A stretch of DNA of 56,529 bases, filler included, from Candidatus Woesearchaeota archaeon (GCA_047603125.1; 4 parts of 4 records of this genome joined end to end with filler, not necessarily neighbours in it); one strand, 5' to 3'; positions 53,752-56,529 are shown, counted from the first letter of the whole stretch. Notes: generated by a model not told the origin, from the sequence alone. Numbers and translations are program-made.

Positions 53752-53885
53752 TAAATTTTAGATTCTCAACCATATTATATTTAAAGTAATTACTGCTTTA
53801 TATAAATTTTGTTAGTTCGTGTCCAGTGAAGCGATGAGAATTCTTTTATATTTGTTTTGCCGTAAATTAACTCGAGGTGGTGTTT

Positions 53886-54890
53886 ATGGATTTGTATGTT
53901 GGTTTGGATGTGCATGAGAAATTTACTTATGCGACTTTTGTTGATGAAAAAGGTAATGCTATGGGTGAGATGAAAGTTCCAACGTCTGAGCAAGGTTTTT
54001 TAACGCTTTTTGCGTCTAAAAAACAACATGTTTTGCATGTTGTTTATGAGGCTAGTAAGAATTGGAGTCATATTCGTTTTTTGCTTGAGAATGCAGGTGT
54101 TAAAAATATCGTTCTTGCTCATCCTCGTAAGCTTAAAGCTATAGCGAGCGCTAGAATTAAAACCGATAGGCTTGATAGTAAGATTCTTGCGGATCTTCTT
54201 AGAGCCAATCTTATTCCTGAGAGTTTTATGCCAACAGAAGAGATTATTCGTTTGAGAAATCTTTGCAGATTTAGGGCAACATTATCTCAAGAGCATACAA
54301 GAACTTCTAATCGTATTAGAAGTTTACTTGCACGTTACGGTTACAAAAGCGATTACAAAAATCCAACATGTAGTCGTGCTAGAATTTGGCTTGTTAATTT
54401 GCCTTTATCTGTTCATGAAAAAGCAGAACTTAATCATTTATTAAATACGCTCGATACATTAAGCAAAGAGCGTGATGATATAAGCCAAGCTATTAAAGAA
54501 GAAGCAGATAAAAGACCTGAGTGCAAATTGCTTTGCACAATTCCTGGATTTGCTGATTATAGTAGCTTATTAATATTATCTGAAATTGGAAATGTGAAAC
54601 GTTTTCAAACACCACAACAACTAGCAAGCTACGCAGGGCTAGTTCCTAGCACTTATCAAAGCGGTGAAACCGCAAGATCAGGACGTATAACAAAACAAGG
54701 AAGCACCTGGCTTCGTTGGATAGTTATACAATGCACTTGGCAAACTGTGAAAAGAGATAATAGAATCGCGAGATTCTATCACAAAATGGCTAAGAAAAAA
54801 GGTCCGCAAAAAGCAATTATTGCAGCGGCAAGAAAAACACTAACTATTATGTGGAGCATGCTCCAAAAAGAGCAAGCTTTCAAAGCATAA
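53886..54890 (+). CDS. IS110-family DEDD recombinase/transposase
   Basis: RuvC-like 'GLDVH', 'YEA', 'KTDRLD'; C-terminal 'IPGF..EIG..RF..LASYAGLVP..QSG..ITKQG'; GAGGTG SD before ATG 53886. Confidence 0.96.
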   Translation: MDLYVGLDVHEKFTYATFVDEKGNAMGEMKVPTSEQGFLTLFASKKQHVLHVVYEASKNWSHIRFLLENAGVKNIVLAHPRKLKAIASARIKTDRLDSKILADLLRANLIPESFMPTEEIIRLRNLCRFRATLSQEHTRTSNRIRSLLARYGYKSDYKNPTCSRARIWLVNLPLSVHEKAELNHLLNTLDTLSKERDDISQAIKEEADKRPECKLLCTIPGFADYSSLLILSEIGNVKRFQTPQQLASYAGLVPSTYQSGETARSGRITKQGSTWLRWIVIQCTWQTVKRDNRIARFYHKMAKKKGPQKAIIAAARKTLTIMWSMLQKEQAFKA

Positions 54891-54893
54891 TTG

Positions 54894-55024
54894 GGCTGTA
54901 GGCAACCGCGATGTACGCACTAAACCCATCAAGGAGTTTCATCCAGTGAATGCGGCGCCCCCAACCCGACGACGCTACATGAGGCACAACGACCTCGAAT
55001 ACCTGCATGTCGTCACAGCCTACA
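54894..55024 (+). ncRNA. Predicted bridge/seek RNA of the IS1111-type element
   Basis: Two stem/internal-loop/stem arms carrying TCCAGTG (54942-54948; equals left flank plus core) and ATACCTG (54999-55005; equals right end plus core), closed by GGCTGT/ACAGCC or TGTAGGC/GCCTACA. Confidence 0.8.
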
Positions 55025-55202
55025 ATAACGAAACGAAAAATTTAAATGTTTCGGAGGTTTAACAAGATGTAACGGAAAACAAAATTATTGGTTTGAGCAA
55101 GGAATATTTTTCCTTGTTCTACCAAGAATTCTCATACCTGAGACACATCACTTTACCAAAAGTAAAATGACAAACATACGAAAAAAAGAAAAACTTTTCG
55201 CC

Positions 55203-55254
55203 ATTCATCCCATACCTAAAGGTACGCTCTGCAACGCAGAGCTATGGGATTTCT
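55203..55254. mobile_element. Orphan IS200/IS605-type end hairpin interrupted by a 20-bp palindromic insert
   Basis: ATTCATCCCATACC-TAAA-GGTA[CGCTCTGCAACGCAGAGCTA]TGGGATTTCT. Confidence 0.5.
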
Positions 55255-55265
55255 AGCTAGCTTTC

Positions 55266-55472
55266 TTAAACAATTTCTATGTCTTTTTCTTCTTTTATTT
55301 TTAGTTTCTTTTTTATTTGGATTATTTTGTGTGCTTCTTTTATTTTTTTGAGAGCGTTTCTCTCAAAGTGCGATACTGCTGCTTGTGAAATATTCAACTT
55401 TTCAGCTATTTGCGTTTGATTTAAATTTTTTTGTTTCAACTTCAAAACTTCATATTCTTTTTTTGTTAACAA
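55266..55472 (-). CDS. Small HTH DNA-binding protein (sigma70-r4/Tfx-like)
   Basis: 'LTKKEYEVLKL....NQTQIAEKLNISQAAVS.FE..ALKKI'. Confidence 0.85.
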   Translation of the reverse strand: MLTKKEYEVLKLKQKNLNQTQIAEKLNISQAAVSHFERNALKKIKEAHKIIQIKKKLKIKEEKDIEIV

Positions 55473-55534
55473 TTTAAATCAACTTTTAGTTTTTTAATTT
55501 TTTATTTTTCAATATTATTTTTCATTTTTATTTC

Positions 55535-56529
55535 TTATTTTTTCTTGGTTTTATTTTTTAACACGAATTTGTACACAAATAATGCGTTAAGCAATGCTAA
55601 AATAAAAATAACTATTATTAATAATGTTAATGTTTCATTTGTATCTTCTTCGTCTTTTATTACTTTGCCTGTTCCAATAACACTTACTTTATCTGTTTCA
55701 AGTCTTATTTTTTTGTTTGTTGTATCTTTTTTATCTAAGTAGTTCAGATTGATTATCATGTCGTATGTTCCTGCAGGTAGTCCTGATGTGTCCCAGAATG
55801 CTTGTAGTCTTCCTCTTGACATTCCTTCTATTTTCGTTGTTGATGTCGTGGTTTCCCATAAGTTTTCGTTTTCTTTTTTGAATTCGATATCTGCGAAAAC
55901 GTTTAATTCTTCTCCCCAATTATTTATTAATAATATGTCAAATCCTGCGATTCCTCCGAGTTTAAATGTTGATGTTGATATGTCATCTATTATTATCTCA
56001 GGGCTGCCTACTGTGAATGTTTTCTCATCACTATTACTTTGTCCTGAATAGAGCATTGATGCTTTTGCAAAGTATTTTCCATTTTGTAAATCTTCATTTA
56101 GTGGCAGAGCAAAATTTGCCATCTCTCCTTTTTTTATTAGTTTAGAATCTCCTTTTATTGTTGCTATTTTGTTATTTGTTTGGGAGTAAATATCTATTAT
56201 TGGTATTGCATTTATTGCGTTTTTTGCTCCTTTATTTTGTGCTTGTATTATGAAATTTCCTCCTTCATCTTTTTTGAAATTAGGCGCGTATAAAGAAATA
56301 TCAAGGTATGCATCATCATACGGCACGACTATTTTTAATTTGTATGTCAAGGTTATTTTTGCAGACATATGTCCTTCGTTTTTAGTAATATCCAATAATA
56401 CTATTTTTATTATGTGCTCTCCGGGTTCAATGTTTTGAGGCAATTTTTTTAATCTTAATTTTACTTTTTCTCTATCTTGGTTTTTTAATAGAGAAATTTT
56501 TTCATTTTCAATATCGACAAAATTTGAAA
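55535..56529 (-). CDS. Membrane-anchored Ig-like-domain surface protein (5' end outside the window)
   Basis: Beta-rich repeats ('L.PGEH', 'LQNGKY', 'LPAGTY'), C-terminal TM followed by a K-rich tail. Confidence 0.7.
   Translation of the reverse strand, partial: SNFVDIENEKISLLKNQDREKVKLRLKKLPQNIEPGEHIIKIVLLDITKNEGHMSAKITLTYKLKIVVPYDDAYLDISLYAPNFKKDEGGNFIIQAQNKGAKNAINAIPIIDIYSQTNNKIATIKGDSKLIKKGEMANFALPLNEDLQNGKYFAKASMLYSGQSNSDEKTFTVGSPEIIIDDISTSTFKLGGIAGFDILLINNWGEELNVFADIEFKKENENLWETTTSTTKIEGMSRGRLQAFWDTSGLPAGTYDMIINLNYLDKKDTTNKKIRLETDKVSVIGTGKVIKDEEDTNETLTLLIIVIFILALLNALFVYKFVLKNKTKKK

Follow-up and report, generated by a model that had tools for sequence, protein, structure and literature searches.

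A 56,529-nucleotide (nt) stretch of DNA from a Candidatus Woesearchaeota archaeon genome (GCA_047603125.1; hereafter the window), made up of four records joined end to end with filler, carries at positions 53829–55140 what is very probably a complete 1312-bp insertion sequence of the IS1111 group, IS110 family, that is, an RNA-guided bridge recombination element. It is a further example of the bridge RNA and seekRNA elements known since 2024, and the mechanism is not new: right-end bridge RNAs have been predicted for 93% of the IS1111-group members in ISfinder (Durrant et al. 2024, PMC11208160), IS1111 right-end RNAs have been shown experimentally as seekRNAs (Siddiquee et al. 2024, PMC11187229), and a 2024 preprint catalogues 662 archaeal IS110-family recombinases. 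Here, by comparison with 15 close and 31 more distant relatives, we describe the anatomy of the element, the conserved structure of its RNA and the covariation of three of the four guides in this RNA with element ends or flanks. The element is apparently intact; ‘intact’ and ‘programmable’, as an original prediction made from the window alone had called it, were too strong for two properties that we infer from the sequence.

Anatomy of the element and its recombinase

The junctions, repeats and gene are as follows.

53822–53826 (+), left target (LT) TCCAG in the left flank; identical to RNA loop 54942–54946; precedes TG in the related loci L090 and L098 and at the site in public run X8
53827–53828 (+), core TG, left copy; present at both junctions in this copy as well as in all 16 close loci
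53829–53833 (+), right donor (RD) AAGCG, terminal extension outside the left repeat; kept in 13 of 16 close loci
53834–53845 (+), left subterminal inverted repeat ATGAGAATTCTT; 12 nt, 100% complementary to 55124–55135
53886–54890 (+), recombinase gene, 334 amino acids (aa), DEDD RuvC-like and Tnp domains; PF01548 3e-25, PF02371 2e-25
55124–55135 (+), right subterminal inverted repeat AAGAATTCTCAT; 12 nt, perfect complement of the left repeat
55136–55140 (+), left donor tip ACC (55136–55138) and core TG, right copy (55139–55140); the element ends at 55140, and the right-flank homology in run X8 starts exactly at 55139
55141–55147 (+), right flank AGACACA, the right target as found, non-cognate to the guide; guide match 1/7

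Judged from the sequence, the layout is of the IS1111 type, with long subterminal repeats, a short left end (57 nt non-coding) and a long right end (248 nt non-coding) that holds the guide RNA downstream of the gene. The repeats stand 5 nt (left) and 3 nt (right) from the core, and their 12 bp lie within the 7–17 bp given for subterminal repeats of the IS1111 group (Durrant et al. 2024, PMC11208160), with short terminal extensions outside them. The first 10 nt of the left repeat (ATGAGAATTC) are present in 25 fetched loci besides the window, three of which are copies of the window's own contig. Variants of the RD among the close loci are AAGTG (L100), TAGCC (L094) and AGCG (L011).

The recombinase scores 89.2 bits against a Pfam cut-off of 29 for PF01548 (N-terminal DEDD RuvC-like domain) and 89.5 against 21.3 for PF02371 (C-terminal Tnp domain). 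Residues D8, E55, D94, D97 and S259 are invariant across 37 aligned sequences; the E, D, D and S align with ISCro4, and all five are equated with D11, E60, D102, D105 and S241 of IS621 through passages of the literature (PMC11208158), not by superposition. S259 lies within GLVPSTYQSG, which fits the IS1111 motif GL-P----S(T)G. The nearest, and only, solved relatives that we found are the bridge recombinases ISCro4 (1.3e-14) and IS621 (8.1e-13), matched mainly in the C-terminal domain, and the best named relative, from a plasmid collection, belongs to the ISHvo10 family of Haloferax volcanii (36% identity over 99% of the protein). At E<=1e-10, 6121 of 8000 scored candidates from a large protein collection are relatives; the best of these are 99%, 73% and 71% identical, followed by values of 55% or lower, and most stand on contigs of 1.2–1.8 kb.

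The original prediction of an IS1111-type bridge recombinase is borne out by both IS110 domains, by the nearest structures (ISCro4 and IS621) and by the IS1111 layout, and the ends, junction words, RNA arms and guides that it had described are all present where it had placed them. The 334 aa that it called compact are correct as a length but ordinary for the group, whose enzymes measure 330–350 aa and carry the motif GL-P----SG (Siddiquee et al. 2024, PMC11187229).

A conserved two-armed RNA downstream of the gene

The RNA and its guides occupy the following positions.

54892–55022 (+), bridge/seek RNA structured core; basal stem 54892–54899 / 55015–55022 plus two arms, from fold, covariance model and covariation
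54906–54955 (+), target-binding arm; outer stem 54906–54910 / 54951–54955, inner hairpin 54922–54939; 98% and 97% of cells paired in helices 2 and 3
54913–54920 (+), right target guide GUACGCA (54913–54919) and C54920 opposite the core G; predicted right target TGCGTAC; position set by relatives
54942–54950 (+), left target guide UCCAG, core UG, then AA as the first 2 nt of the RD (handshake-like); 9/9 to the left junction
54968–55014 (+), donor-binding arm; outer stem 54968–54974 / 55008–55014, inner hairpin 54981–54996; 100% of cells paired in helix 7
54973–54979 (+), right donor guide CGCUACA; 6/7 complementary to TG+AAGCG
54999–55005 (+), left donor guide AUACC and core UG; ATACCTG identical to 55134–55140

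The RNA, about 130 nt long, is a three-way junction in which the basal stem closes both arms. Within each arm, an internal loop separates the outer stem from the inner hairpin (CCGC/GCGG and AAACCC/GGAGUUU in arm 1, GACGACG/UGUCGUC and GAGG/CCUC in arm 2), and the repeated words lie on the 3′ sides of the two internal loops. The RNA stretch has 56% G+C, compared with 31–44% within the gene. The minimum-energy fold of 54891–55030 reaches −39 kcal/mol with z = −1.9, and 6 of 200 shuffles fold equally well. The 9-mer TCCAGTGAA at 54942–54950 exactly repeats 53822–53830, and these are its only 2 occurrences in the 56.5-kb window; the expected count is 0.51, and two or more occurrences were seen in 10 of 100 shuffles. 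Such single-window statistics are modest, and support beyond chance comes from relatives.

Alignment-based scans returned 80 genome loci and 80 metagenome loci, among which 15 (45–71% protein identity) have the window's end sequences together with a well-alignable RNA. RNAalifold recovered the two arms from these 15 sequences with 29 pairs, 8 of them with compensatory changes. The basal stem covaries by eye, reading GGCUGU/ACAGCC in the window, GGCUUU/AAAGCC in L099 and GGGUUU/AAACCC in L095. A covariance model built from the 15 sequences matches the window at 54876–55037 with 106.9 bits, beginning 14 nt before the end of the stop codon and extending downstream, and, in a search of 167 sources, detects the RNA at 37 additional loci, directly after the gene in 34 of them. 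The search also gave one minus-strand match, likely spurious. Over the resulting 47 matches (44 distinct), the share of paired cells is 94.4%; shuffling lowers it to 76.4%, and sliding the partners to 44.1% or less. Of the 29 pairs, 22 vary on both sides over the 44 distinct sequences, a number reached by none of 500 shuffles; in helix 7 of the donor arm, 3 of 5 pairs do so. This alignment was fitted to the model, which favours structure; the margin is large nonetheless.

In three more distant loci (L017, L050 and L066), an RNA homologue was observed just upstream of the gene (at about 1020–1183, the gene starting from 1201), which could be an IS110-type layout or the tail of a preceding copy.

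No curated family emerged from an Rfam search of the contig in E-value mode; its sole match, to snoR64 on the opposite strand within the gene, was below threshold. The pattern AACCCGACGRCRCT occurs in three of 401 genomes of the phylum, including the window's own, and the new loci (L171 and L172) are without the family repeats and were left aside; 39 pattern matches in viral contigs searched with the family alignment included no relative.

It is highly improbable that the internal copies of the ends are simply DNA sites, for example extra recombinase binding sites, with a downstream region that binds protein or terminates transcription and yields no guide RNA. We obtained no RNA evidence, the contigs of RNA run X13 lying only on 55158–55400 (flank, T-rich low-complexity matches) and being uninformative on the guide RNA, and the matches are same-sense DNA repeats that DNA sites would explain as well. 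However, DNA sites do not predict changes on both sides that keep the stems paired in 22 of 29 pairs, the matched segments sit in internal loops and not in stems, and the layout is the same as that of experimentally shown seekRNAs and bridge RNAs.

Donor guides follow the element ends

The left donor guide equals the right end of its own element in 15 of 15 loci; the match consists of three variable nt (triplets ACC, ACA, AGA, AGG and GGA) plus the core, and the cross-pair rate is 0.30. Locus L010 was excluded from this count, its contig ending 3 nt after the repeat. On the 5′ side of the donor loop, CGCU stands opposite AGCG of the left tip and is constant wherever the RD is AAGCG. The right donor guide has one compensatory case, L100, which combines the sole AAGTG tip with CACUU. 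In the wider family, loop-to-end matches of 7–9 nt are found in all 26 usable rows (of 47), against a cross-pair mean of 4.9. The related sequences are non-independent, so that this and the following cross-pair contrasts overstate significance.

The left donor, right donor and left target guides had all been placed correctly in the original prediction, including the 6/7 complementarity of the right donor guide in the window, and covary with ends and flanks in relatives.

Target guides and a half-matching insertion site

Among the 13 loci with enough flank, the left target guide matches its own flank at 3.77 of 5 positions on average, compared with 1.87 of 5 in cross-pairs. Five loci match at 5/5, three at 4, another three at 3, L096 at 2 and L094 at 1; only the 5 nt directly preceding the core carry the signal, with none further out. 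Elements with a UCCAG guide (window, L090 and L098) all stand after TCCAG-TG, in flanks that are otherwise unrelated. A common TG 2–3 nt to the left of TCCAG in these three is missing at the X8 site and is not encoded in the loop; we treat it as chance.

The right target guide had rightly been called weak. With the 13 close loci taken ungapped, its register is weak for the window's subgroup; it was settled by the wider family: over 37 unique rows the guide matches, as reverse complement, a mean of 4.1–4.3 of the seven nt right of the core, against 2.1/7 in cross-pairs, with 7/7 in L012, L167, L151 and L141. The column rule used for scoring mis-registers L102 (0/7; 9/9 by eye) and L077 (2/7; 8/9 by eye). 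Relatives show a real guide at 54913–54920, and the full site predicted for the window's guides is TCCAG-TG-TGCGTAC. The window copy, however, sits at a half-matching site that fits the left guide and the core only.

Several observations weigh against a guided insertion as read here. The right target guide fits the window's right flank AGACACA at 1/7, and the nearest relative, L090, likewise shows 1/7 at its right flank. No site fitting both target guides was found in the host bin, where the best match is 12/14 and the 28 matches of at least 11 equal those in a shuffled genome. The 1.1-Mb bin holds one copy of the element only. In run X7, one contig has CCCTA-TG at the left end of the element (2/5 to the guide); this contig, not tied to any one RNA variant, is one of two independent left-flank tests outside the window. 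The single-sequence z-score of the RNA is modest, and the non-independence of the relatives counts on the same side. Regarding TCCAG-TG targets elsewhere, the window's left flank, the X8 site, L090 and L098 speak for the claim and the X7 contig against it, and the balance favours it.

An exact empty site was not found in the window's own genome, which has 3 one-mismatch matches against 2 in a reversed control, and none of the contig ends in the bin carries a partial element end. A discontinuous pairing of GAUGU (54910–54914) with ACATC (55145–55149) plus the core exists; it is post hoc, has no counterpart in L090 and is not relied on.

One explanation of the mismatch would be that, in a sub-lineage comprising the window and L090, the 5′ guide has ceased to restrict where the element lands, and insertion takes place wherever TCCAG-TG occurs, a 7-bp half-site recognized by one guide plus the core. 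The window and L090 both carry the guide UACGCA, yet have unrelated right flanks (1/7 each), and the same right flank is found uninterrupted after TCCAG-TG in another metagenome; even so, we consider this reading improbable.

Handshake-like positions in both loops

Each loop of the IS621 RNA has, next to its 3′ guide, a dinucleotide that base-pairs with the other DNA partner once strands have been exchanged (PMC11208158). In the target loop of the present family, the dinucleotide that follows the core is identical to the one that begins the left tip in every one of the 16 close loci. It is AA in 14, TA in L094 and AG in L011 (where the tip is one nt shorter, and the match, missed at a fixed offset, was read by eye), and AT or GT in the wider family. 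The corresponding dinucleotide of the donor loop agrees with the one that begins the right flank in 10 of 38 rows, compared with 6.9% of cross-pairs, and its first position alone agrees in 22 of 38, compared with 26%, both counts being taken over non-independent rows. The window fits the target-loop rule, not the donor-loop rule. Because the two nt after the core on each loop's 3′ guide match the other DNA partner, the architecture along the RNA equals that of IS621 (long 5′ guide, shorter 3′ guide, two handshake nt), except that the DNA is read the other way round, the reversed order described by Siddiquee et al. (PMC11187229). We found no statement on handshake guides for IS1111-type RNAs in the literature searched, which did not extend to supplements.

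Flanks of the element in other metagenomes

Nineteen public runs hold part of the stretch, as contigs only, and four of them were examined (X5, X7, X8 and X13). In X8, which comes from another study, habitat and organism, a 646-nt contig carries 55139–55270 with 4 differences directly after ...CACC-TCCAG. The site there is an uninterrupted TCCAG-TG-AGACAC, exactly the empty target that had been predicted, and the sequence upstream of it is unlike the window's left flank. Two readings offer themselves: a window contig that combines flanks from two copies, or surroundings that vary from one organism to another. One X5 contig stops precisely at 53822, a weak hint of flank divergence at this point, and in X7 two contigs run past the right core into unrelated sequences. 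The circle junction, right end to left end, which the original prediction had spelled out, was not seen in contigs of X5, X7, X8 or X13, and contigs cannot exclude a circle.

These data bear on whether the element, real in itself, is here a stranded or off-target copy or the product of recombination between two copies, in which case its left and right flanks would never have been neighbours. We rate this as a serious possibility, slightly short of an even chance. In its favour, the right flank in X8 (55139–55270, 4 differences) follows TCCAG with an upstream sequence unlike the window's, and no joint 53826>55139 is reported there; the window's right flank mismatches the right target guide, the left flank runs for just 75 nt to the contig end and, as a weak point, the X5 contig stops exactly at 53822. 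On the other hand, runs of the source study hold 97–98% of sampled words of the whole stretch, and X8 represents another organism and habitat, so that a different neighbour is possible there. The identity of the element as an IS1111-group insertion sequence is the same whether or not the flanks were joined in this way.

The contig and its host bin

The element lies on one short contig, C64, which forms the final 2778 bases of the window (53752–56529) and is set off from the remainder by N and TTAATTAA spacers. Its bin comprises 70 contigs and 1.1 Mb and is archaeal, as it encodes a TATA-binding protein with both repeats above the Pfam cut-off.

The original prediction had cautioned that the contig might belong elsewhere, and we regard it as unlikely, although far from negligible, that the element comes from another organism and that this 2.8-kb contig was wrongly binned into the archaeal genome. 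C64 is the second shortest of the 70 contigs, its right flank has 28.6% G+C compared with 36.4% for the bin, and close relatives of the recombinase occur in bins with archaeal as well as bacterial labels (L010, Woesearchaeota; L011, Patescibacteria, on a 1.3-kb contig). Against misbinning stand the two repeats of the TATA-binding protein in the bin itself, the haloarchaeal, ISHvo10-like identity of the nearest named transposases, and a 330-aa protein encoded in the right flank that has relatives (21–30% identity) in 3 of 4 same-order genomes, although in 0 of 8 same-family genomes searched.

This 330-aa protein (55535–56527, − strand) is cut by the contig end and has a C-terminal hydrophobic stretch, with a sub-threshold WxLIP match. 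The right flank also encodes a 68-aa helix-turn-helix protein (55266–55472, − strand), GerE/sigma-70 region 4-like at 3e-08.

Possible expression signals and rearranged ends

Further features of the two ends are the following.

53843–53850 (+), TATA-like box TTTTATAT adjoining the repeat; a TTTAWA-like run follows the left repeat in relatives
53873–53881 (+), ribosome-binding site GAGGTGGTG, 5 nt upstream of the ATG at 53886; GGAGGTG-like sites at the same position in relatives
55054–55072 (+), GGAGGT, 7 nt and ATG-TAA; right-end ribosome site followed by a start-stop mini-frame; by eye; overlaps the inverted repeat with 53851–53867

The TATA-like box at 53843–53850 is a possible archaeal promoter of the recombinase gene. 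The ribosome site had been described as an archaeal-style Shine–Dalgarno sequence, but a GGAGG-type site is not specifically archaeal.

The strong ribosome site and mini-frame at 55054–55072 lie between the guide RNA and the right repeat and are conserved there. By eye, the same arrangement is seen in L091, L098, L099, L100 and L102 (ATG-TAA after 7–9 nt) and, with a weaker site, in L101, and in L095, L096 and L010 the right-end ribosome site precedes a short frame that runs out through the element end. A second inverted repeat, imperfect (17 nt, 76%), pairs 53851–53867 with 55067–55083 in the ATGTAACGG region of the right end, and a pair resembling it is also found in L102 by eye.

The element is a mosaic with respect to its relatives. 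Its left end (53834–53888) and distal right end (55025–55135) are 87% and 91% identical to L102, whose gene DNA is only 64% identical, and its guide RNA is closest to L090 (83%), yet the ends of L090 differ (71% and 48%). Ends like those of L102 combined with an RNA like that of L090 suggest that end modules have been exchanged between related elements. Locus L090 itself carries at about 1786–1840 a tandem duplication of the last 27 nt (right repeat, tip and core), and the sequence before the duplication ends in five nt identical to tip plus core, as might be left by recombination of the donor site with a similar internal sequence.

In run X8, a 1973-nt contig joins 53858 to 55030, so that roughly 29 nt of left end are followed by the distal part of the right end and the 1171 nt with the gene and guide RNA are skipped. 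This may be a miniature non-autonomous derivative or equally a chance or repeat match, given that the right-end part differs at 13 of 75 nt and the shorter side is 29 nt long.

Discussion

From anatomy and covariation we infer that the element functions as an RNA-guided recombination system; an RNA–protein complex, a circle intermediate and strand exchange would follow what the literature describes for IS621, ISEc11 and related elements. The 3′ side of the target arm, UCCAG-UG, reads like the top strand at the insertion site and would pair with the bottom strand, while the 5′ side, GUACGCA-C, should pair with the top strand right of the core. In the donor arm, AUACC-UG on the 3′ side and CGCU... 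on the 5′ side would read the two element tips. In the circular form the tips would abut as ...CAT-ACC-TG-AAGCG-ATG..., and recombination at the common TG core would insert the circle.

The closest known counterparts in layout are the IS1111 elements with seekRNAs (ISEc11, ISPa11, ISKpn4 and ISPst6), which likewise have a DEDD recombinase of 330–350 aa with GL-P----SG, subterminal inverted repeats with short terminal extensions and a long non-coding region downstream of the gene; as in their seekRNAs, the complement of the top strand lies 5′ of that of the bottom strand, overlapping at the insertion point (PMC11187229). Unlike these, the window element comes from an archaeal bin and is known here from sequence, its RNA is without an Rfam match, and the right flank of the window copy misfits the 5′ guide.

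With IS621 and ISCro4 (PMC11208160, PMC11208158; PDB 8wt6, 9t56), the window element shares a two-loop bispecific RNA, one guide per strand in each loop with both guides including the core dinucleotide, conserved DEDD and serine active-site residues and, as with their handshake guides, a dinucleotide beside each loop's 3′ guide that matches the non-cognate DNA. The protein similarity is distant, however (E 1e-13 to 1e-14); the RNA follows the gene instead of preceding it, the guides stand in reverse order with respect to the DNA, the repeats measure 12 bp against 2–3 bp, and the core is TG against CT. ISHvo10 of Haloferax volcanii, listed among diverged IS1111 relatives by Siddiquee et al. (PMC11187229), is archaeal like the bin of the window, but its protein is only 36% identical and it has long non-coding regions on both sides of the gene (PMC11187229), compared with 57 and 248 nt in the window.

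Two points may be of interest for engineering, namely the handshake-like positions in an IS1111-type family and natural copies at sites that fit one target guide only; neither alters the picture of how such elements work. With this element, the RNA-guided IS110/IS1111 recombinases gain an archaeal member that is apparently intact and cleanly annotated, accompanied by some 45 related RNAs, each with loops that are readable against the junctions of its own element.

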